From the NCBI GenBank assembly GCA_965267345.1, contig OZ253947.1, forward strand, positions 138,814-202,813: 64,000 nt of DNA, given 5' to 3'. The position numbers were made by a program, and so were the translations under genes. Of the stretch, positions 3,951 to 27,659 are shown one piece after another. The notes below the pieces were generated by a model, which saw nothing but the letters and a program-made list of their open reading frames with translations, searched no databases and was not told the DNA's origin. Every line of letters starts with the position of its first letter. The stretch's first letter is position 1. The stretch is from Minisyncoccota bacterium. GTDB taxonomy: Bacteria; Patescibacteriota; Minisyncoccia; Phycocordibacterales; UBA2100.

Positions 3951-5717
3951 TTACTTAAAGAAGTGCCACACACGCTCGGTCTGTGTATGCCATGTATGCA
4001 CATCAGCGAAGCGTTCACTCGGTGTGGTGACGAGTCCGGCGTCAATGCCGTGCATGCGTGTGGGAACAAGGTACAAAAAGTCGGGTGAGTAGAGGAATAT
4101 CGCGGGAACGTCCGCACGGATCTCTTCTTCAAATGCGCGATACAGTTCGTCACGCTCATCGGTATCGGACAGCGTGCGCGCGTCTGCTAGAAGATCGTCA
4201 GCGGTGGTATTAGTATACAGTGCAATGTTAAGCCCCGGATCATCCCGCTGTGATGAGTGCCAGAAGGCAAACAGGTCCAGCTCGCGACCAATGACCTCAC
4301 CGAACAGCAGCGCCTCGTAGTCGCGTGGACGAATGATGCTCTGGTTCAGCTCACCTGTTTCAAAAATACTGACGCGCACCGGAATGCCGGCTTCACGCCA
4401 CATCTGTGTGGCGAGTTGTGCCGCCGCTTTCAGTTCAGGCGTGTTCGCGGTGGCAATTGAGAATGACAGAATCTGTTCGCCGTCAGTCCACTGGTTCAGG
4501 TCAGTATCAAACTCCCAACCGGCATCTTCAAGGATAGCGCGTGCCTGCGCTTGGCGTTCTTCTGTCGTACGCGTGTCTGTGGGCGCTTCATACTGTCCCT
4601 CAACTGTTTCGGGCGGGAGGGGTGAGTCAATCACCGTGCCGTAGCTGTTGAGTACCTCGTCAATGATTGCCTGCTTATCAATGAGCACAGTGAGTGCCTC
4701 ACGTACGGCACGGTCGGTAAAGATGTGGTTTTGGTTCTGATTGAAAAATACGGCAAAAATACGCGGGAAGGTTGCGCGTATCAGGCGACTATCATCGTCA
4801 ACGATGGTGTTCATTGATGCTGACGAGAGTGCGCTCAAGCTCTCGACGGCGCCCTGTGTGTAGGCGCGCACGAGGTCCTCCTCATTTGCATAGAAGTGAA
4901 TAAAGAGGGTATCGATATACGGCTGCCCGAGGGTGTACTGGCGATACGCAGATAGTTCGTATCGCGTTGGAATGCCTGCACCGTTGTAGGTGATGTCGTG
5001 GAGGGTAAACGGGCCCGCACCAATAGGTTGTGTGTTAAATGTGCTAAAGGGAAATTCCTGTGATGAGACGTTAATCCATATGTGGCGCGGCAAGATGCCC
5101 ATTGTCGTATTTTCGAGGAACGGCGCATAGGGTTGATCGAGCACGAAGCGTACGGTGCGATCGTCAACGCGTTCCACTGTGACGCCGTCCCAGTCGGCAC
5201 GACGAGGGCTCTTGAGCGCATTATCTTGTGCCGCTTCAACAGTAAAGATAATGTCGTCGGCAGTGACGGCAACACCATCGTGGAATCGGGCGTCATCGCG
5301 CAGTACGAAGGTATACTCGGTACCGTCTTCTGAGATGGTGTATCGTTCAGCCAGATCGGGTACTAACTCACCGCTCGCGGTTGGGCGCGTCAGTCCGGCA
5401 TAGATGAGTGCTGAAAGATCGCGGTCGGTATCTGAAATGGCAAGGAGCGGGTTAATGAAGCGCGGTGCACCGATGACGCCTTCGTGGAGTGTTCCGCCAC
5501 GTACCGGCACTTGTGTCGTCGCATACGTATTGAGCGATACAAATACCGCGAAGCTACTGACACTAACCGCTGCAACCAGCAGCCAAAACAGCACTTTCTC
5601 TGCAGGCGAGAGTGTAGCGACAATGCGATCGAGTACGTGCGCCTTTGGCAACATGCGCCACTGGCGTACACGAGCGAACAAACGCAGACCTGATTGTGGG
5701 TTCTCGTGATGAGTCAT
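3951..5717 (-). CDS. ABC transporter substrate-binding protein, family 5 (peptide/nickel-type), membrane-anchored
   Basis: Long ORF 3951..5777. N-terminal TM helix, then family-5 solute-binding-protein-like sequence. Start uncertain: GTG 5777, ATG 5732, ATG 5717 or ATG 5654. Confidence 0.7.
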   Translation of the reverse strand: MTHHENPQSGLRLFARVRQWRMLPKAHVLDRIVATLSPAEKVLFWLLVAAVSVSSFAVFVSLNTYATTQVPVRGGTLHEGVIGAPRFINPLLAISDTDRDLSALIYAGLTRPTASGELVPDLAERYTISEDGTEYTFVLRDDARFHDGVAVTADDIIFTVEAAQDNALKSPRRADWDGVTVERVDDRTVRFVLDQPYAPFLENTTMGILPRHIWINVSSQEFPFSTFNTQPIGAGPFTLHDITYNGAGIPTRYELSAYRQYTLGQPYIDTLFIHFYANEEDLVRAYTQGAVESLSALSSASMNTIVDDDSRLIRATFPRIFAVFFNQNQNHIFTDRAVREALTVLIDKQAIIDEVLNSYGTVIDSPLPPETVEGQYEAPTDTRTTEERQAQARAILEDAGWEFDTDLNQWTDGEQILSFSIATANTPELKAAAQLATQMWREAGIPVRVSIFETGELNQSIIRPRDYEALLFGEVIGRELDLFAFWHSSQRDDPGLNIALYTNTTADDLLADARTLSDTDERDELYRAFEEEIRADVPAIFLYSPDFLYLVPTRMHGIDAGLVTTPSERFADVHTWHTQTERVWHFFK

Positions 5718-5789
5718 ATGTACGGGGAGCATTAACGTACCGCGTGTGTGTACGCGTGCCGTACGCACGTCGCACACACGCCGGCAGCG

Positions 5790-8908: not shown

Positions 8909-10255
8909 ATGATTCGTCTTCGCGACACAGTGTTCATTTTTGTCTGTGCCATTGCGCTCTGCGCCGGTGGGGTGAGTATGGCCCATGCCGAAACTGACGT
9001 TGAGCGCCGTGCGCGGCTGCAGGCGCAGCTCGACCAGCTCGACAAAGAAATTGCCGGCCTTGAGGTTGTGAAAGGAGAGGTCGCAAAAGAACGACAGACG
9101 CTCGAGCGCGATATCTCACTCCTTGATGCTGAAATTGAAAAAGCGCAGCTGGCGATTCGGCGTCGTGATCTCACCATTGAGCAGATTATCGACAACATCC
9201 ACGATCGCGAAGAGGCTATGCAGGCACTCGACGAAAAACTGCGTCGCGAAAAAGCATCACTGGCGCAGCTCTTGCGACGCACGAACGAAATTGACGACAT
9301 GAGCTTTGCCGAGATGGTACTGGGAGGAGATGATCTCTCTGATGTATTTGAAGACATTGATGCATTTGAGTCGGTGAAGTTGTCACTGACAAATTCATTC
9401 GAGCACATTGCCGAGACACGCGTCTCAATTCGTCGCCAGCGCGATGCACTTGAAAAAGAGCACATTGAAGAAGAGCAACTGCGCAAGCTCCAAGAGCTCG
9501 AGAAGCAGAAGGTGGAAGAGCGCAAGGGCGAGAAGAACACTATTCTTGAAGTAACCAAGGGCGAAGAAGAAACGTATCAGGCACTCATTAGTGAAAAACG
9601 TCAGACCGCAGCCGAAATTCGCTCAGCACTCTTTGCCTTGCGTGACACAGCTGCTATTCCGTTTGGTGACGCCTATGACTTTGCAAAAGAAGCAAGTGCA
9701 AAAACGGGTGTTCGTCCGGCCTTGATCCTCGCGATTTTGAAACAAGAAACGAACCTTGGTGAAAATGTGGGGCAGTGTCTGCTCACCAACTCACCAAACA
9801 AAGGTGATGGTAAAGGGGCAAACACGGGACGCTTTTTCTCACAGGTCATGAAGGGGTCTCGCGACGTCGATCCGTTCATCGCCATTACTGCAGAACTTGG
9901 GCTTGACCCATACAGTCAGGTGGTGTCGTGTCCGCCAGGATACGGTTATGGTGGCGCGATGGGGCCCGCACAATTTATTCCGTCGACGTGGGTACTGTAC
10001 AAAGATCGCCTCGGAAAGGTTACGGGACAGAATCCGCCGAACCCATGGGAGCCACGGACGGCGATCTTTGCCACGGCACTGCTCATGGAAGACAACGGCG
10101 CTGATGGCGGTACGTATGCGTCTGAAAAACTCGCGGCGCTTCGCTACTTTGCAGGATGGGCAAACGCACGCGATCCTGACTATGACTTCTACGGTAGGAG
10201 TGTTATGGAGCTTGCAGACGATTTCCAACGCCAGATTGACATTTTGGAAGGCTAA
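8909..10255 (+). CDS. Secreted coiled-coil protein with C-terminal lysozyme-like (lytic transglycosylase-like) domain
   Basis: Signal peptide and about 250 aa of heptad coiled coil. C-terminal ALILAILKQETNLGENVGQC (E-S/T motif of SLT-like folds). Architecture resembles PcsB/EnvC-type cell-wall hydrolase regulators. Confidence 0.5.
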   Translation: MIRLRDTVFIFVCAIALCAGGVSMAHAETDVERRARLQAQLDQLDKEIAGLEVVKGEVAKERQTLERDISLLDAEIEKAQLAIRRRDLTIEQIIDNIHDREEAMQALDEKLRREKASLAQLLRRTNEIDDMSFAEMVLGGDDLSDVFEDIDAFESVKLSLTNSFEHIAETRVSIRRQRDALEKEHIEEEQLRKLQELEKQKVEERKGEKNTILEVTKGEEETYQALISEKRQTAAEIRSALFALRDTAAIPFGDAYDFAKEASAKTGVRPALILAILKQETNLGENVGQCLLTNSPNKGDGKGANTGRFFSQVMKGSRDVDPFIAITAELGLDPYSQVVSCPPGYGYGGAMGPAQFIPSTWVLYKDRLGKVTGQNPPNPWEPRTAIFATALLMEDNGADGGTYASEKLAALRYFAGWANARDPDYDFYGRSVMELADDFQRQIDILEG

Positions 10256-15143: not shown

Positions 15144-16376
15144 CTAGCGCCACCGTACGCCGCTGCTTGCAACAGCTTTGTAGAGCGCTGCGGTAAGCCA
15201 TAGTGGTGCAATAAAACCGTAGAGAGCGATGTAGACAGGAATATCGGCTGAAAATGACGGATCCTGAGCGAGGCGCTTCCCGATACCCATCAGCACGACG
15301 GTGAGTGCCACCACCACGATGGTCATGCTCAGCACTACATCGGTACTAATGTAGAAGAGTTCGATATCAGCGTGCGGCAGCGAAACGCCGACGGTCTGCA
15401 TGCGCGTCAACTCTTGCGCAATGAGTACCAGTACATTCCAGAGTACCGACATGAATAAGAAAATTGCTCCGAGTAGTGAGAAGAGGGTGATGGGAAGCAC
15501 CAGCAGACCGAGCGTGCCGTAGTGTGGATTGAGGAACATAAAGCGGTAATCGACCGCATTTTTCAAGAAGCCGTAGGTCCAGCGTACGCGCTGGCGCACG
15601 AGCTGCGCAAACGATTCAGGTGTTTTGGTGTATACGCGCGCCCGTGGCTCATTGACAATTCGTTTGTGGAATCGTTGCAGGCGAAGTCCCATCTCAAGGT
15701 CCTCAGTGCTGTGTGCGTGCTTCCACGGTCCCACTTCTTCGATAACGCTGCGACGGAAAAACGAAAACGGTCCAGGGGTGATGAATACTGCGTCGGCAAG
15801 TGCAAACGTTTTACGTATAAAAATAGAAAGGCCGTACTCCGCCTTTTGCACCACCTGTAGGAGACTGCGAGCACCGGCGACCTTGATGCTCGGTGTGATT
15901 GCCGCTACCTGCTCGTTGGCGACAAAGTGCGGTACCAAGTATAGGAGCGCATCAGCGTCCACGTACGAGTCGGCGTCGAGGCAGCCAATGAGGTCGGCGG
16001 TGGTGTGGGCGAGTGCCGCATTCATGGCACTGTGCTTGCCGCCGTTTTTCTTGTCGATAATGTGCACTGACGGATACTGCGCAAATGCAGAGAGGGTCTG
16101 CAGGGTCGCATCAGTTGAACCGTCATTGACCGCAATAATTTCAAGTTTGTCTTTCGGGTACGTGAGTGCAAGCAGTGATTCGATGGTACGTCCCACGGTC
16201 GCCTCTTCATTGAAGCACGGCACGATCACTGCCACACGCGGAAGTGTCGCATCGTCAGGTGACGCCGGTGCGCTGTGCTCTACGCCGAGGTGCTCAAGAA
16301 AGGTGATGAGCAGAAAAATCTCAAAATAGAGTGACACAAACAACACCGCGTGCATGAGTATACTCGCAATGTCCAT
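15144..16376 (-). CDS. Family-2 glycosyltransferase, processive type (QxxRW), integral membrane
   Basis: VIVPCFNEE, DGSTD, LDADS (DxD) and QRVRW. N-terminal TM and C-terminal multi-TM region, like PgaC/cellulose-synthase-type GT2. Confidence 0.85.
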   Translation of the reverse strand: MDIASILMHAVLFVSLYFEIFLLITFLEHLGVEHSAPASPDDATLPRVAVIVPCFNEEATVGRTIESLLALTYPKDKLEIIAVNDGSTDATLQTLSAFAQYPSVHIIDKKNGGKHSAMNAALAHTTADLIGCLDADSYVDADALLYLVPHFVANEQVAAITPSIKVAGARSLLQVVQKAEYGLSIFIRKTFALADAVFITPGPFSFFRRSVIEEVGPWKHAHSTEDLEMGLRLQRFHKRIVNEPRARVYTKTPESFAQLVRQRVRWTYGFLKNAVDYRFMFLNPHYGTLGLLVLPITLFSLLGAIFLFMSVLWNVLVLIAQELTRMQTVGVSLPHADIELFYISTDVVLSMTIVVVALTVVLMGIGKRLAQDPSFSADIPVYIALYGFIAPLWLTAALYKAVASSGVRWR

Positions 16377-21337: not shown

Positions 21338-22393
21338 TTAGTAGGCGTGCCCGCCAACGGTAAACGCGCCGGTTACCGTGTTGTTGTATTCACTTTGCTC
21401 GCGAATGAAGTTGCGTGGATCGGCGACAACCGAGAAGTACTGTGTACCAGCACGAATTTGATCAAAGGCGATACGGATTTCAACACGAGCACCGGGGAGT
21501 AGCGACGTCTGTGCTTCTGAGAAGAGTGGGTAGCCCCCTTGAATCGGGAGTTGCGCGTTGAAGTACCATGGGCCGGTTGCCTTCGTCCCGCGGTTGGTTA
21601 CTGCAAAGACAAACGCACCGCGCTGATTTGGCTGGACGGTTGTTGCGGGACGGTAGATACCGTAGCCGTCGACAAACCCAACAGAAACGAGTGATACTGC
21701 CAAGTCGGGCGTGCCGTTTGGATCAGAGTAACCCGTGTACTGCGCAGTGTACGATTGCTGTGTGCTATTCGTGGTGTTTTGTGTCGCGTTCTGGCGTGAT
21801 GGAGTGATCGTGAGACCGTCAGGTGTGCTGGTGGTACCTGTGGTGGCATCGTCAGTGCTGCTGTCCGTAGTGGTGGTCGGTGCGGTGTTATCGGTGGCAA
21901 CGCTACCGGCTGCTGCTGCCTGTACGGTAATGGTGTGGGTGTCACGAATGCTCTCACCTGCGTCGTCGGTGAGTGTAATGGCAAACGGCACCGTAAGCGT
22001 TTCGCTGCCGGCGTCAACGAGCACTGGGGTGACCTGCAACTCAGTCGCATCTTCGGCAAGTGTATGCGCGAGATTACACGGCACCGGCTCGCCGGCAATT
22101 TCAAAGTAGAAGCCGTCCTGACATGCGTATGAAAATGACAACACACCTTCTGAGGTAGTGCGCTCCCACGTCACCGCAAGCGGTTCACCTGAGGTGGCAG
22201 TATCCGCTGCAGTAGCCACAACAATCGTTTCTGCCGCTGCGTTACCGCCTTGCGGCGTATCGGCATCACTAAAGAGTCGTGGAATGTATGAAATGACCTG
22301 AATGGCGCTCCAGACACCGATAATGAGGAGGATAATAAAACCGCCGATGGCGATAATGTTTTTAAACGATACGTCAGTTTTTCCGTTTGTCAT
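21338..22393 (-). CDS. Membrane-anchored surface protein with Thr/Ser-rich linker and C-terminal CARDB-like domain
   Basis: N-terminal TM helix, about 60 aa T/S/D-rich low-complexity linker, and C-terminal DLAVSLVS..FVFAVTNRGTKATGPWYFNA..PGARVEIRIAFD (CARDB-like beta-sandwich). ATG at 22393 preferred over TTG at 22405. Confidence 0.5.
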   Translation of the reverse strand: MTNGKTDVSFKNIIAIGGFIILLIIGVWSAIQVISYIPRLFSDADTPQGGNAAAETIVVATAADTATSGEPLAVTWERTTSEGVLSFSYACQDGFYFEIAGEPVPCNLAHTLAEDATELQVTPVLVDAGSETLTVPFAITLTDDAGESIRDTHTITVQAAAAGSVATDNTAPTTTTDSSTDDATTGTTSTPDGLTITPSRQNATQNTTNSTQQSYTAQYTGYSDPNGTPDLAVSLVSVGFVDGYGIYRPATTVQPNQRGAFVFAVTNRGTKATGPWYFNAQLPIQGGYPLFSEAQTSLLPGARVEIRIAFDQIRAGTQYFSVVADPRNFIREQSEYNNTVTGAFTVGGHAY

Positions 22394-22500
22394 ATGGGGT
22401 AACAAAGTAAGTAAAGTCGATCAATGTGCCACTAGTATGGCACAGTACCGTGGGCGACACACCACCGGTACGCTCCGTAAACGGTACCATAGCATACAGC

Positions 22501-22529
22501 TTGACACATTGCAATATAGTACGTATAGT
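22501..22529 (+). promoter_or_regulatory. Consensus sigma70-type promoter upstream of the sortase gene
   Basis: TTGACA, a 17 nt spacer, then TATAGT. The -10 ends about 9 nt before ATG 22539, so a leaderless or near-leaderless transcript is likely. Confidence 0.6.
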
Positions 22530-22538
22530 ATTAATTCT

Positions 22539-23237
22539 ATGACGCAACAGAAGCGTATTTCAATTGCGCACATTGCTGAATCAGTATTCCAGACCGAAGT
22601 GCTTGTCGGGCTCTTTCTTGCGTGGTTCATCCTCGTGGGGACTGGGGCAAGTATTGCCATTGTCATGACCAAGTACACCGAGCATGTGTACGCTGAGCAA
22701 CTTGCACAGCTGCCTGAAGACGAGCAACTCCCTGAGGCAACAAATGTTGCTGAAAGTGCGCAGCGGGACACCGGCGCAGCTGAGAGTGCTGTACCCATGG
22801 CATTTCCAGAACGCCTCGTTATCGACACACTCGACATCAGCTTGCCGGTGAGCAACCCGACAACACGCGACATTGCGGCGCTCGACGAAGAGCTCAAAAA
22901 GGCTGCCGTGCGTTATCCTGACTCGGGTATTCTTGGCGAAGACAATGCAAATACCCTTATTTTCGGCCATAGTAGCCGTCTACCATTGGTGCGCAACCAG
23001 CTCTACAAAGCTTTTAACGATATTGAAACCCTAAATGTGGGTGTACGTATTGAGGTTGTTGCAACAAATGGCTCTGTATACGTCTACCACGTATCTCGTG
23101 TGTACCGCGCCAGCGCTGAAGATGACAGCATTGCCATCACTACAGACGGCCACATGCTCACATTGCTCACGTGTGACTCATTTGGACAGCGCACAGATCG
23201 TTGGGTTGTCGAAGCTCGGTTTGTCGGCATTGAATAG
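22539..23237 (+). CDS. Sortase-family transpeptidase
   Basis: N-terminal TM anchor, TLIFGHSS (catalytic His) and LTLLTCD (TLxTC catalytic Cys motif), followed by a conserved Arg region. Confidence 0.7.
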   Translation: MTQQKRISIAHIAESVFQTEVLVGLFLAWFILVGTGASIAIVMTKYTEHVYAEQLAQLPEDEQLPEATNVAESAQRDTGAAESAVPMAFPERLVIDTLDISLPVSNPTTRDIAALDEELKKAAVRYPDSGILGEDNANTLIFGHSSRLPLVRNQLYKAFNDIETLNVGVRIEVVATNGSVYVYHVSRVYRASAEDDSIAITTDGHMLTLLTCDSFGQRTDRWVVEARFVGIE

Positions 23238-23302: not shown

Positions 23303-23476
23303 ATGCGGACACTTGTCGTCGTGTGTGCGGCTCTGGCCCTCGCCGGTTGCACACTATCTGGATTCGGTGGAAGTTCACTGCGAACGGAGGCAGTGCAAAA
23401 GGTATTTCCGTCGGCGCATGAGTGCATGCACCGTGGGGAACCACATCTGTGCGTCAGTGACAATCAGCGAATTTAG
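23303..23476 (+). CDS. Small putative lipoprotein with CxH..HxC motif
   Basis: MRTLVVVCAALALAGC lipobox. Mature peptide about 40 aa with HECMHRGEPHLC. Strong SD (GGAGGAG) 8 nt upstream. Terminator hairpin follows. Confidence 0.45.
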   Translation: MRTLVVVCAALALAGCTLSGFGGSSLRTEAVQKVFPSAHECMHRGEPHLCVSDNQRI

Positions 23477-23595
23477 CGAAAAACGGCTCAACACAGCAAA
23501 AACAGGGCGCTTCGGCGCCCTGTTATGCTATTGACATATTGTATAAAAATGGTATTCTTCCGTCCAGATCAACGTGAACGAAAGGAGGAAATCCA

Positions 23596-23850
23596 ATGTT
23601 CACAGTGGTTCGTACGGCCTGCGTACTTGGTGCGCTTGTGGTCGCGGGTTGCGCGGCGCAGGGACGCCATGTGAGTGGGTCGCCAGTGCCGCCGTCGCCG
23701 AGCGACCTCTTACGGCATTGCGGGGACGTGGAGGTTGTCGTTGACAACCGAGTACCACGACGTCCGCGTGGTCCGTGGTTGCGTCTCGTGCAGGGAACAC
23801 GAGTGTATCCTGACTTCTGCCGCGTGGAAAAGAGCTACGTGTGGCGATGA
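23596..23850 (+). CDS. Small putative lipoprotein, Pro/Arg-rich with 2 mature Cys
   Basis: LGALVVAGC lipobox. AAAGGAGG SD 7 nt upstream. Own terminator. Confidence 0.5.
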   Translation: MFTVVRTACVLGALVVAGCAAQGRHVSGSPVPPSPSDLLRHCGDVEVVVDNRVPRRPRGPWLRLVQGTRVYPDFCRVEKSYVWR

Positions 23851-24144
23851 GGAAAGCACACAAGCAAGACAAAAAGCGGGGCGCCCACACGGTGCCCCGC
23901 TTAGTTTTTGGTACAGGATAGTACTTGACACAATAAGTTATATATGCCACTATATCGCCACGACGCGTTCTCTCTTTGATGCCAAACATACGCTGTTTTT
24001 ACGGCGTATGTTTGGCTTCGTAGAGGCCGCAGAAGCTCATTGTGTTCATTGAAACGCTCCTCATTGTGGGGAGCTGGTGGTCGGCGCCATGGCACACATC
24101 ACCAGCTCCCCGTGATGGAGGGAGTACAAAAGGGAGATTCAAAG

Positions 24145-25191: not shown

Positions 25192-25249
25192 AGAATCGTC
25201 AAGGCCCAAGTTCCCGACAGAGCATTCTTCAAAACGAATAGCTCTGTCG

Positions 25250-25279
25250 GGCACTTGACTACTTTTAATATATATTGTA
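25250..25279 (+). promoter_or_regulatory. Sigma70-type promoter upstream of the tandem-repeat surface protein
   Basis: TTGACT, a 17 nt spacer, then TATATT. Confidence 0.5.
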
Positions 25280-25349
25280 TATTCTCATTGAGTCATTTAC
25301 TCTTGCTGCGGCAGTGGTAGGTGAACAAAAGCAACATAATGTAATTATC

Positions 25350-26600
25350 ATGGAAAACGTGATTTCAAAAATAACTTTCATATCATTGGCCGTACTATTC
25401 GGTGTGGTGTTTGGGCTTGGAAGTCAATTGGTTTCTCCGCATCTCGCGCAGGCGTATAATACCGGCGAATGGTACGACATCGCGGAACCTGCATACGGCT
25501 ACGATGATGGCTGGGGGTATACTAACGAAGGATGCTGCGATACTAACGAATGGTACGACATCGCGGAACCAACTTTCGACACAAGCGAATGGTACGACAT
25601 CGCGGAGCCCGCATACGAATATAATACCGGCGAATGGTACGACATCGCGGAACCAACTTTCGACACAAGCGAATGGTACGATATCGCAGAGCCAATACAC
25701 GATGTGTATTCATACGACTATGGCTACGATGTATACGACTACGACGTATATGACACCTACTCATACGACTACTACACCGCACCGTCACGTCACTACGTGT
25801 CACCGACGGTACATTACGGTGTGACATCAAGTTACGCAGCAGCGCCACGATACGAGGCGCGCAGCAACACACAGATCAGTAACACCAACACAACGGTAGA
25901 CAACAGCGTGGTGCAGATCGATAACAGTGTTGTCGACAACAGTGTCGTTGATAACAGCATCAACAACTCATTTAACTCAGGTGGCTACATCGGTGTTGCA
26001 AATCCGCAGCCGATCGTTGTACAGCCGTACTACTACCCAACGTACTACCCTGAGACACTGACGTGTTCACTGACACTGACGCAGAACAGCTACGGAAACG
26101 CCGTGCTGCACTGGACGACACAGGGCGCAACCCGCGCAACCATCAACAATGGTGTTGGTAGTGTGTCTGTCGGTTCAGGTTCACGTGCTGTCGGGCCGGC
26201 ATACACGCCATACACCATGACAGTGTGGGGTACACGCGGTAACACCACGACGTGTGCCGCATCAGCAAACTACACGCCGCACCGACCAAACGTCACGGTT
26301 GATATTGCACACGTGCCATACACTGGTGTTGATCCACTTCCATACACACTCGGGCTTATTGCCACCGCTCTTGCCGCCGGTGCTGCACTCTTTGTCTTCC
26401 GCCGTCGTCTTACCCCTGTCTTTGGTGCATTTGCTCCCGCATTTGCCGGATTTACGCAGCATCAGGACGAAGTGGCTGCTGACACGTATCAGTTTGACGG
26501 TGACGAGGACGACGCAGATAGCGACGATCGCGAGGCAGTTGATACGCTTGTTGTTGAAAAGGGTGAGGGAGGACCACAATTCTCGTTCATTCGTCGCTAA
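25350..26600 (+). CDS. Tandem-repeat surface protein (EWYDIAEP repeats, Tyr/Asp-rich) with sorting-signal-like C-terminal region
   Basis: Signal peptide, then 5 or more EWYDIAEP(A/T)(Y/F) repeats, YDY low complexity and DNSVV repeats. C-terminus has VPYTG..PLPYTLG, a hydrophobic helix, RRR, and a 60 aa acidic tail. Confidence 0.55.
   Translation: MENVISKITFISLAVLFGVVFGLGSQLVSPHLAQAYNTGEWYDIAEPAYGYDDGWGYTNEGCCDTNEWYDIAEPTFDTSEWYDIAEPAYEYNTGEWYDIAEPTFDTSEWYDIAEPIHDVYSYDYGYDVYDYDVYDTYSYDYYTAPSRHYVSPTVHYGVTSSYAAAPRYEARSNTQISNTNTTVDNSVVQIDNSVVDNSVVDNSINNSFNSGGYIGVANPQPIVVQPYYYPTYYPETLTCSLTLTQNSYGNAVLHWTTQGATRATINNGVGSVSVGSGSRAVGPAYTPYTMTVWGTRGNTTTCAASANYTPHRPNVTVDIAHVPYTGVDPLPYTLGLIATALAAGAALFVFRRRLTPVFGAFAPAFAGFTQHQDEVAADTYQFDGDEDDADSDDREAVDTLVVEKGEGGPQFSFIRR
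25455..25700 (+). repeat. Imperfect tandem DNA repeats (units about 39-45 bp nested in an 83 bp higher-order unit) encoding EWYDIAEP repeats
   Basis: gaatggtacgacatcgcggaacc recurs at about 25467, 25548, 25587, 25632 and 25671. tataataccggcgaatggtacgacatcgcggaacc is duplicated at about 25454 and 25618. Confidence 0.85.
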
Positions 26601-26688
26601 CGCAGCGACCGCTGTACAATTGCGTGCCGCTATTGCCTAATTTCTGCACGCGTTGACAACCCGTCTGCGAAGCGCATTATTGAGAGAT

Positions 26689-27150
26689 ATGACGTACACA
26701 AACACATTGCGTTGGAGTATCGCCGCACTGTTCATCGGTGGCGCTGCTCTGTTCGCGTTTCCGTACAGCGCCCACGCACTCTCATACATTGATTGGAATT
26801 ACCCGTATACACGGTCATCGAACCAGTACGTCGTGACGTCGGCAACGTACGGCAATCAGTACAACAACTGGAACGCCAATCCGAATTGGAACTGGACGCA
26901 CCGGAACTGGAACCGCAACACAGCAAACGGCTACACCGTGACATTTCCGCAATCAACGCACCATAACTACACACCGGCAACGTATACGTACTACGATTAC
27001 TACCAGCCGCAATGGTACTACACGACGCCCGTAACGTACCGCTATGATGATTGGTACTATCCAACAAATACGTGCTGGAACTGCACATCATGGCCGTACA
27101 ACAATGGGTGGGGTATTAACGTCGGTGGCTACTACTCAAATTCGTGGTAG
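26689..27150 (+). CDS. Secreted Trp/Tyr/Asn-rich low-complexity protein
   Basis: Signal peptide (..AALFAFPYSAHA). Mature chain is dominated by W, Y, N and T (NWNANPNWNWTHRNWNRN, YYDYYQPQWYY). Confidence 0.45.
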   Translation: MTYTNTLRWSIAALFIGGAALFAFPYSAHALSYIDWNYPYTRSSNQYVVTSATYGNQYNNWNANPNWNWTHRNWNRNTANGYTVTFPQSTHHNYTPATYTYYDYYQPQWYYTTPVTYRYDDWYYPTNTCWNCTSWPYNNGWGINVGGYYSNSW

Positions 27151-27218
27151 GTGCGCCTTACGCGGACCCCTTCCGTAGGACTTGACACTATAGCATAAAT
27201 ATGCTACAGTATACCCCT

Positions 27219-27659
27219 ATGAACGTACAGAGTACGGGTATAGCGCGATTTACCGCAACGGCATTTGTTGTCGTCATTGCAGTGGTAGGTTTCGCGATAC
27301 CAAAAAGTGCAGACGCCGCTTATCAATATGGCATCGGGGCGTCGATTTGTGGGAATGATCCTTTCATGTATTGTGGCAACCTTGGATACAAGGAGCGCAG
27401 CAATGGTCAGTGGCAAGTAACCGCCGGCGGAACAGTTGGGTTCGGAAACACATACAGCACGTACCGCCCAGCATCACGTCCGACGTACTACACGACCAGT
27501 CATCGCAGTGCACCGAGTGTGTACACGGTCGGGAGCGCATACTCACGCCAGAAGCGTCCCGTATACGTTGGTTCGCGTACGCAGTCAACGTACGTTGTCA
27601 CATCAAACAATGCTCGTGCACCGCGCACGTCATACCCAAACTGGTTGGTCATGTACTAA
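27219..27659 (+). CDS. Secreted Tyr/Thr/Ser-rich protein
   Basis: Signal peptide (..FAIPKSADA). Mature chain rich in Y, T, S and R with short repeats (STYRPASRPTYYT..). Confidence 0.45.
   Translation: MNVQSTGIARFTATAFVVVIAVVGFAIPKSADAAYQYGIGASICGNDPFMYCGNLGYKERSNGQWQVTAGGTVGFGNTYSTYRPASRPTYYTTSHRSAPSVYTVGSAYSRQKRPVYVGSRTQSTYVVTSNNARAPRTSYPNWLVMY

Follow-up and report, generated by a model that had tools for sequence, protein, structure and literature searches.

A candidate sortase-anchored, fast-evolving surface protein with a putative dedicated sortase in a Minisyncoccota bacterium

Overview

A 64-kb stretch of contig OZ253947.1 from a Minisyncoccota bacterium (positions 138,814 to 202,813 of the forward strand; hereafter the window) has a GC content of 53% and carries core housekeeping genes. 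Between these lies the gene for a repeat-bearing protein of 416 amino acids (aa), which we consider probably to be a fast-evolving type I protein of the cell surface, anchored there by a dedicated sortase whose gene lies 2 kb upstream; the bacterium is Paceibacteria/Kaiserbacteria-like. Envelope building and host contact in the candidate phyla radiation (CPR)/Patescibacteria are largely unknown, and sortase substrates and their motifs have not been defined there. The locus offers a concrete candidate pair of enzyme and substrate, the motif L(S/T)Q[IV]PYTG, and a conserved island consisting of a protein with a CARDB domain, the sortase and one or more proteins with a PYTG motif (PYTG proteins). 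A surface protein that evolves fast and varies in repeat length is a natural candidate for contact with hosts or particles.

Sorting signal and topology

A preliminary description of the gene had proposed the tripartite layout of sortase substrates (motif, transmembrane (TM) segment, positive tail), and all three parts were found: VPYTG, in the context ...IAHVPYTGVDP... (IAHVPYTGVDPL), the helix LPYTLGLIATALAAGAALFVF at aa 330-350, and RRR. The motif had been called non-canonical, which holds only mildly, since VPYTG matches [LIV]PxTG. A second motif, PLPYTLG, had also been suggested near the C-terminus. This was rejected, as PLPYTLG forms the first residues of the TM helix and relatives do not conserve it. 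Taken together, an LPXTG-type [IV]PYTG motif that directly precedes the only predicted TM helix and is followed by basic residues fits a sorting signal.

Hydrophobic segments were called at a Kyte-Doolittle value above 1.6, and just two were detected in the window protein, the signal peptide (approximately aa 8-30) and the segment at approximately aa 330-350. Because a Sec signal peptide is combined with one TM helix and positive residues behind that helix, VPYTG is predicted to lie outside the cell next to the membrane, and the tail in the cytoplasm. A cytoplasmic position of VPYTG, which the preliminary description had named as an argument against sorting, was not predicted. Among 282 members of the family described below, 262 had exactly one hydrophobic segment beyond PYTG followed by net positive charge, which within about 20 aa past the TM helix amounted to +1 to +3 in most members.

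According to the proposed mechanism, the precursor would be exported by Sec, after which its single C-terminal helix would keep it in the membrane. The sortase would cut after the Thr of VPYTG and transfer the ectodomain onto the cell wall, with the disordered acidic and aromatic repeats in the distal position, followed by a low-complexity stalk and the immunoglobulin (Ig)-like domain. The repeat region would evolve fast and change its length by whole in-frame units, which would fit a variable contact or adhesion surface; a tip that is acidic, aromatic and disordered and varies in this way probably serves to contact a host cell or a surface. After cleavage, the conserved TM helix and the cytoplasmic beta-hairpin would stay in the membrane with some second role. 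Cleavage at PYT↓G, the acceptor and the function in adhesion are only what we infer.

The PYTG module family

A search with the whole protein returned two orthologs, P0002 (43% identity) and P0003. P0004 (E=7.5e-14) and P0005 (E=8e-4) were also matched, and have other N-terminal repeats and the same C-terminal layout. With a C-terminal query, the strongly conserved module (P)YVSL(S/T)QIPYTGFDFGPxGNxxYWxxLxxFAxAGAYLxVYY was found (consensus peptides spanning the motif: LTQIPYTGFDFGP and SLTQIPYTGFDFGP). Of 1.84 billion representatives screened with a module profile of 60 columns, those of at least 766 clusters (50% identity) scored E<=1e-3, and 349 of these reached E<=1e-10. In addition, the genomes of 185,579 species, one genome each, were scanned with the query QIPYTGFD. 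This gave 124 stretches, from which 77 loci were retained, and their titles were of Patescibacteria type or named an unclassified metagenome-assembled genome.

Full-length members begin with a signal peptide, species-specific short acidic or aromatic repeats and a Gly/Ser/Tyr low-complexity region. A NIDNSINDSFN-like motif follows (the motif itself is common to P0005, P0039 and P0042), then one to five Ig-like domains, the PYTG-TM module and a variable linker, and the proteins end in ...T.D(S/A)M.......G..PRIVI.R. Consensus and tail counts were made over 261 non-redundant sequences, and the D(S/A)M...G..PRIVI.R ending was present in 195 of these. Within the TM module, the positions G+7, G+10, N+11, YW+14/15 and AYL..YY are conserved at 65-95%.

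The window protein retains only xxHVPYTGVD and a generic TM helix from the consensus module, and G+7, G+10, N+11, YW and AYL..YY have been lost in the lineage of the window protein, P0002 and P0003. Its C-terminus (...DTLVVEKGEGGPQFSFIRR) is a diverged copy of the PRIVI.R-type ending, and a phmmer search with the window protein matched PYTG ORFs (open reading frames) of 31 loci. On the basis of shared architecture, sequence matches, gene order and the hairpin in the AlphaFold2 (AF2) model, the window protein is assigned to the PYTG family as a diverged member.

The acidic tail of about 60 aa noted in the preliminary description is present (Table 1). It had been regarded as unusual, but the window protein, with 90 residues after the Gly of VPYTG, follows the family norm, because the family median is 107 residues and the ending is conserved. 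Only 12 of the 261 members have 45 residues or fewer. In some paralogs (P0004, P0019, P0022 and a protein of locus L074), the chain stops 34-44 aa past the motif and closes with a TM segment and RR, which is a classical sorting signal. In loci with several PYTG proteins (L014, L023, L029, L041, L074), different tail classes occur side by side: long tails ending in the PRIVI.R hairpin, short classical tails, tails of about 60 aa with an amphipathic end (...RK.A.KID..RG or ...ARNQ..A.RS(L/I)), and tails of about 86-90 aa ending in ...LQYKAF.NVA..AA.PI. These differences suggest functionally distinct subunits.

Pfam and NCBIfam were scanned with the window proteins and with ten typical family members per library, and in neither library was the module or the tail covered by a model. 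A 46-aa profile used to look for the hairpin outside PYTG proteins gave no match at E<=1, which is no evidence that the hairpin is restricted to them. The module profile could be used to annotate several hundred clusters; the members tested had no Pfam or NCBIfam match, and there was no informative source name among those listed.

The sortase and its linkage to the PYTG gene

The sortase gene reported upstream was confirmed as a member of PF04203 (E=3.3e-18, 66.1 bits, cutoff 26.6) with catalytic residues and a TM anchor at approximately aa 20-43. Its His, Cys and Arg align with those of PDB entries 4d70 and 2ln7, the nearest entries (class-D-like, E~1e-4), and with those of 47-48 neighbour sortases.

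The sortase had been named as the only recognisable partner, and homologs of it were found beside PYTG genes in 46 of the 77 other Patescibacteria loci, on the same strand and upstream in all but two; many of the loci without a match are cut off upstream or have longer insertions. By a rough estimate, a single-copy gene would fall within a 20-kb window of a genome of approximately 0.6-1 Mb by chance in 2-3% of cases. The CARDB homolog adjoins the sortase in 42 loci, and thrS lies directly downstream in 69 of the 77. Each locus contains one to three [LIVMA]PYTG ORFs, on the plus strand except for one minus-strand match, and with both genes in range they always fell in the interval bounded by CARDB-sortase and thrS. 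Clustering of the plus-strand ORFs of the sortase-thrS interval gave PYTG as the sole widely conserved family (102 ORFs in 77 loci). The next largest real cluster occurred in 15 loci, and the remainder were lineage-specific small secreted proteins. The core of the island thus comprises the CARDB protein, the sortase and the PYTG protein(s).

The loci of P0002 and P0003 have the same order as the window, i.e. gyrB, CARDB (minus strand), sortase, small secreted genes, repeat protein, small genes, thrS (minus strand) and dnaE (minus strand). The housekeeping genes of the window include RNase J, GroEL, RF, pheST, gyrB, thrS and dnaE as well as RNase HII, nusB, smc, RNase R, rpoBC, dnaG, rpoD and a UvrD-family helicase-nuclease. 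In comparison with genomes labelled Kaiserbacteria, Paceibacterota or Parcubacteria, the identity is approximately 74% for GyrB and approximately 61% for DnaE.

Four loci encode a second PYTG protein with another architecture, which ends directly before the sortase ORF (L049:86-2191, L060:3029-4879, L075:8729-10219 and L080:5416-7557). These proteins start with (GDGGGD)n-type repeats, contain as many as six Ig-like domains, SpaA/Cna-B-like domains or extended CPxGYTGTYPNC arrays, and have tails of 57-67 aa without the PRIVI.R hairpin. Since different ectodomains carry the PYTG module beside the sortase, the module is portable between ectodomains. In the lineage of the window, both the module and the sortase have diverged, and its sortase is the most diverged.

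The 46 sortases beside consensus QIPYTGFD genes (L005-L081, e.g. L061:1049-1738) carry LSAADS(I/V)GFVPYY(I/V)DG(S/T) right after the membrane anchor. Neither the sortase of the window nor those closely related to it (L001, L004) have the GFVPYYIDG-type motif. Judging from its resemblance to the substrate motif (I/V)PYTG, the VPYY of the sortases may be a pseudo-substrate or a lid-like element.

Arguments against anchoring and alternative readings

Several observations weigh against sortase anchoring. The VPYTG signal is not placed at the extreme C-terminus, whereas ordinary signals end approximately 30-40 aa past the motif, and the degree of conservation of the TM helix and the cytoplasmic hairpin far exceeds that of ordinary sorting signals, which are discarded. 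Among the NCBIfam anchor models, the window protein gave only sub-threshold scores (GVDTG_CTERM, 18.5 against 29 bits; Microco_LAVTG, 15.5 against 27 bits). The sortase reached none of the curated NCBIfam classes A-F and GN (SrtD 32.9 and class C 32.8 bits, against cutoffs of 140-165). Both the sortase and the PYTG gene have their own promoter-like site, and apparently separate promoters. Finally, the co-localisation alone could be inherited synteny because the island lies between housekeeping genes, so that the linkage may partly reflect vertical descent of the block gyrB-CARDB-srt-...-PYTG-thrS-dnaE. Three points go beyond inherited synteny: the PYTG proteins that abut the sortase, the paralogs with short signals, and the parallel divergence of module and sortase.

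For the family at large, typical members matched no NCBIfam anchor model, and P0022 matched the LPXTG_double anchor model weakly (E=7.6e-5, 22.6 bits against a cutoff of 48).

A rather unlikely alternative is that the protein is a permanently anchored, uncleaved type I membrane protein, in which PYTG-TM is a structural or oligomerisation element and the hairpin is the functional output, i.e. a scaffold or signalling contact. The neighbouring sortase would then act on other proteins or just on the short-tail paralogs. Such a protein would be in keeping with the strong conservation of the TM helix, with a C-terminal hairpin that recurs through most of the family and is confidently modelled by AF2, with the housekeeping genes in the synteny block and with sorting-signal hidden Markov model cutoffs that were never reached. 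It is harder to reconcile with an invariant [IV]PYTG that is an exact sortase-type pentapeptide in the correct place, with the textbook sorting signals on short-tail paralogs, and with unrelated ectodomains, encoded right next to the sortase ORF, that carry the module. Furthermore, neither the islands nor the 64-kb window contained another candidate sortase substrate.

Under sortase anchoring, the conservation of a remnant that would be discarded is truly unexplained. Such conservation is unexpected in a disposable signal, and the TM helix and hairpin could point to a further role linked to processing by the sortase. One reading, which we regard as unlikely, is that cleavage at PYT↓G does two jobs, attaching the ectodomain to the wall and leaving or releasing a functional TM-hairpin fragment, like a site-1 cut. 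The conserved helix and tail would make sense because the C-terminal remnant could function after cleavage. If this were true, the fragment could, e.g., report successful surface display or dock a cytoplasmic partner, and the island would hold a sortase-coupled transmembrane signalling or scaffolding module in the core genome across a large CPR lineage. As summarised in PMC11502775, the C-peptide left by sortase cleavage at LPXTG in Streptococcus gordonii acts as a membrane signal, and as in that case the TM-containing remnant could have its own function. The streptococcal C-peptide is short and is sensed in the membrane by a histidine kinase, whereas the PYTG remnant would have a cytoplasmic tail of 60-130 aa with a conserved hairpin. 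By analogy, a C-peptide-like coupled function in the PYTG family is possible.

Lysine content and the pilus alternative

Ig-like domains combined with a sortase motif, SpaA/Cna-B-like domains in one relative, and loci with several PYTG proteins of different tails, like the major and minor pilins of pilus operons, would also be found in a pilin polymerised by the sortase into a covalent Gram-positive-type pilus. This reading is highly improbable and was rejected, as the 290 residues of the window ectodomain contain no Lys and hence no pilin-motif nucleophile. Ectodomains across the family are similarly depleted (mean 0.33% Lys over 189 members), two thirds of the window ectodomain is predicted to be disordered, and a single sortase is present per locus instead of a pair of pilin-specific and housekeeping enzymes.

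Lys depletion was considered as a trait specific to the PYTG family and this was rejected, since other exported proteins of the organism are also Lys-poor. In the window, Lys accounts for 1.0% of the SBP_bac_5 protein (3951..5777, minus strand), 0.8% of the CARDB protein, 0.5% of the PYTG protein and 0% of a Tyr/Asn/Trp-rich protein. Cytoplasmic proteins of the organism (gyrB, GroEL, rpoBC) contain 5-8% Lys, against 0-1% in exported ones.

Repeats and their variation

At least five EWYDIAEP(A/T)(Y/F) repeats had been described. Exactly five copies of EWYDIAEP are present (E at aa 40, 67, 80, 95 and 108), but only four continue with AY or TF, the fifth being followed by IH. The higher-order DNA repeat has the subunits of 39 and 45 bp that had been reported, and a period of 84 bp (28 codons) instead of 83; its copies are in frame and 85-89% identical. 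Tandem Repeats Finder (TRF) gave a period of 39 with 3.7 copies (score 174). Both YSYDYGYDVYDYDVYD and the DNSVV repeats follow the EWYDIAEP array, as previously noted.

The preliminary description had also raised copy-number variation that drives phase or antigenic variation. Variation in copy number does occur in a close relative, but phase variation of the frameshift type is not expected because the repeat unit is in frame and changes length, not the reading frame. In the P0003 cluster, alleles of 294/295 aa and of 331 aa are otherwise 100% identical in protein sequence, and P0006 corresponds to P0003 minus exactly one higher-order unit of 37 aa (111 bp). The contigs that carry the P0003 and P0006 alleles are 99.6-99.8% identical in their flanks, with single-nucleotide differences present, and both alleles recur across several samples and assemblers. 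These sequence data support a real copy-number polymorphism, although the short alleles may also reflect collapse in short-read assembly.

The repeats of P0002, P0003 and L087 keep WYDIAEP, and orthologs from independent metagenomes contain six to nine WYDIAEP cores. The repeat array had been considered a possible assembly artefact, and the recurrence of WYDIAEP in independent metagenomes speaks against this as well as against a chance origin. It is extremely improbable that assembly errors produced the array or the entire ORF, or that the region is low-complexity DNA without coding function. In favour of such readings, a scan of Joint Genome Institute (JGI) metagenomes for WYDIAEP orthologs yielded two loci only (L086, L087), whose contigs end inside the repeats, and for the short allele P0006 an assembly collapse is conceivable in principle. 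Against them, the ORF is intact with an in-frame repeat period, is preceded by a promoter-like site and encodes a domain that is confidently folded in the AF2 model; syntenic orthologs occur in independent assemblies, and the family has at least 766 clusters.

The repeat sequences differ between species, with WYDIAEP, WGIVDTYY, ADYWYAEP, YGTYDTWSD, GTYFDTATPQ, NDFQPYA and CWDCGFDVSPD as examples. The PYTG protein is 43% identical to the ortholog of locus L004, compared with 85% for gyrB in the closest relative. By this measure, the PYTG gene, repeat region included, evolves far faster than its neighbours.

Relation to known sorting systems

The PYTG proteins share with LPXTG signals of housekeeping sortases (TIGR01167-type anchors, SrtA) a [LIV]PxTG motif before a C-terminal TM segment and basic residues, and a Sec signal peptide. 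As in SrtA-type systems, the sortase is membrane-anchored and has His, Cys and Arg. Unlike LPXTG signals, the PYTG family has an invariant Tyr at X, conserved flanks (LxQ and FDFGPxGN..YW), a conserved TM helix and, in place of a stop shortly past the motif, a long tail with a conserved hairpin end; its members reach no cutoff of a curated anchor model.

Dedicated pairs of sortase and substrate include SrtB with NPQTN/IsdC, class D with LPNTA, and the 'marine' GN sortase TIGR03784 with its adjacent target. The PYTG locus resembles these in that one sortase is linked genomically to one or a few substrates with a private motif variant. It differs in that its sortase is below all class cutoffs (SrtD and class C best, at approximately 33 bits) and in its position within a core housekeeping block, not in an operon for iron uptake, sporulation or pili.

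The Ser-Asp-repeat MSCRAMMs (microbial surface components recognizing adhesive matrix molecules) are repeat-bearing adhesins of Gram-positive bacteria, and likewise combine a sortase-type anchor with in-frame tandem repeats of strain-variable number. In contrast to these, the PYTG repeats are distal (N-terminal), acidic, aromatic and variable between species, and no ligand-binding A domain is recognisable.

Tripartite C-terminal sorting domains are also known from PEP-CTERM/exosortase, GlyGly-CTERM/rhombosortase and MYXO-CTERM/myxosortase (PMC3237569, PMC11980579). They have in common with the PYTG system a motif, a TM helix and a basic cluster, a dedicated enzyme and restriction to certain lineages. 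Their enzymes are polytopic intramembrane proteins unrelated to sortase, whereas the PYTG locus encodes a classical transpeptidase of the sortase fold.

Sortases are frequent in CPR (PMC6744442), and surface proteins of CPR bacteria have been described, in a general way, as bearing 'sortase motifs' (PMC5220378). A search of the literature on PYTG, IPYTG, VPYTG and LPYTG, and on sortase in CPR, Patescibacteria and Parcubacteria, did not find a description of the motif or family. Likewise, the defined PYTG module, its confinement to a sortase island and the conserved hairpin were not found in the domain libraries and literature searched. A 'Pam pilus' described in a 2026 preprint is a chaperone-usher-like system and differs from the PYTG locus.

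Anatomy of the gene and the predicted protein

The longest form of the ORF begins with TTG (25275..26600). The ATG at 25350 is the likely start, and is favoured over the TTG because the promoter-like site sits inside the TTG extension. The core of the inverted repeat that overlaps this site is CCCGACAGAGC/GCTCTGTCGGG, and a similar palindrome (CCGACAGAGAGC/GCTCTCTGTCGG) lies at the equivalent position in L004 (9911..9938), the locus of the TARA ortholog. The inverted repeat could be a terminator or an operator.

The signal peptide cleavage site AQA↓Y is a putative one, placed by an AXA motif. The AF2 model was built on an alignment of 20 sequences. In this model, aa 28-218 are disordered (pLDDT, the predicted local distance difference test score, <50). 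A Pro/Tyr linker connects the DNSVV repeats to the domain with two Cys, and the Ig-like domain is present one to five times in relatives. When the model was compared with PDB folds, all matches were of a generic Ig/PKD/FnIII-like kind, and none reached E<=0.001. The features are listed in Table 1.

Table 1. Positions of the PYTG gene, its sequence features and the neighbouring sortase and CARDB genes in the window.
Feature	Position	Strand	Basis and remarks
PYTG-family surface protein gene, 416 aa	25350..26600 (incl. stop)	+	ORF; product identical to database protein P0001; orthologs P0002 and P0003 syntenic
Promoter-like site TTGACT-17-TATATT	25255..25283	+	10/12 matches; upstream of ATG 25350
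17-nt inverted repeat CAAGTTCCCGACAGAGC / GCTCTGTCGGGCACTTG	25207..25257	.	Between upstream gene and PYTG gene; overlaps -35 hexamer
Predicted signal peptide, aa 1-35, ...HLAQA↓YNTGE	25350..25454	+	Hydropathy peak aa 11-21; AF2 helix aa 2-27
EWYDIAEP repeats x5	25458..25700	+	84-bp (39+45) in-frame higher-order DNA repeat; AF2 pLDDT <50, predicted disordered
Tyr/Asp-rich stretch VYSYDYGYDVYDYDVYDTYSYDYY	25704..25784	+	TRF period 15 x 3.3 at 25724-25772
DNSVV repeats, ending in family-conserved (I)DNSINNSFN	25894..25977	+	TRF period 15 x 2.7 at 25918-25957
Predicted Ig-like beta-sandwich, aa ~230-305, flanked by two Cys	26037..26264	+	AF2 pLDDT 81-96, seven strands
VPYTG, candidate sortase cleavage motif, aa 322-326	26313..26327	+	Family consensus L(S/T)QIPYTG
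Predicted single TM helix aa 330-350, then RRR aa 351-353	26337..26408	+	Hydropathy; AF2 helix aa 329-353, pLDDT ~85
Predicted cytoplasmic tail, 66 aa, net charge -8	26400..26597	+	Sequence composition and predicted topology
Predicted C-terminal beta-hairpin aa 398-415, DTLVVEKGEGGPQFSFIR	26541..26594	+	AF2 strands 398-405, 408-415; pLDDT 83-88
Sortase, 232 aa, N-terminal TM anchor	22539..23237	+	PF04203; His IFGHSS, Cys TLLTC, Arg DRWVVEA
Sortase promoter-like site TTGACA-17-TATAGT, near-consensus	22501..22529	+	Motif match
Membrane protein, C-terminal CARDB domain, divergent to sortase	21338..22405	-	PF07705 E=1.6e-7

Neighbouring genes

The CARDB protein has no C-terminal sorting signal. 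Two very small ORFs with lipoprotein-like signal peptides (…LALAGC… and …LVVAGC…) lie between the sortase and the PYTG gene (23303..23476 and 23596..23850, both plus strand), and sites that resemble terminators, with a hairpin and a T-run, were detected at 23501-23524 (minus strand) and 23874-23902 (plus strand).

Directly downstream of the PYTG gene, two ORFs (26653..27150 and 27201..27659, both plus strand) encode small secreted proteins, each with a promoter-like TTGACA site. Neither product had a Pfam match or a sorting signal. The first is very rich in Tyr, Asn and Trp (NWNANPNWNWTHRNWNRN), with 14.5% Tyr and no Lys.

The window also encodes a protein with an SLT_2 lytic transglycosylase domain (E=6e-8; 8909..10255, plus strand) and a family-2 glycosyltransferase with chitin-synthase-like matches (15144..16376, minus strand). 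Both may be relevant to the wall that would receive the sortase substrate.

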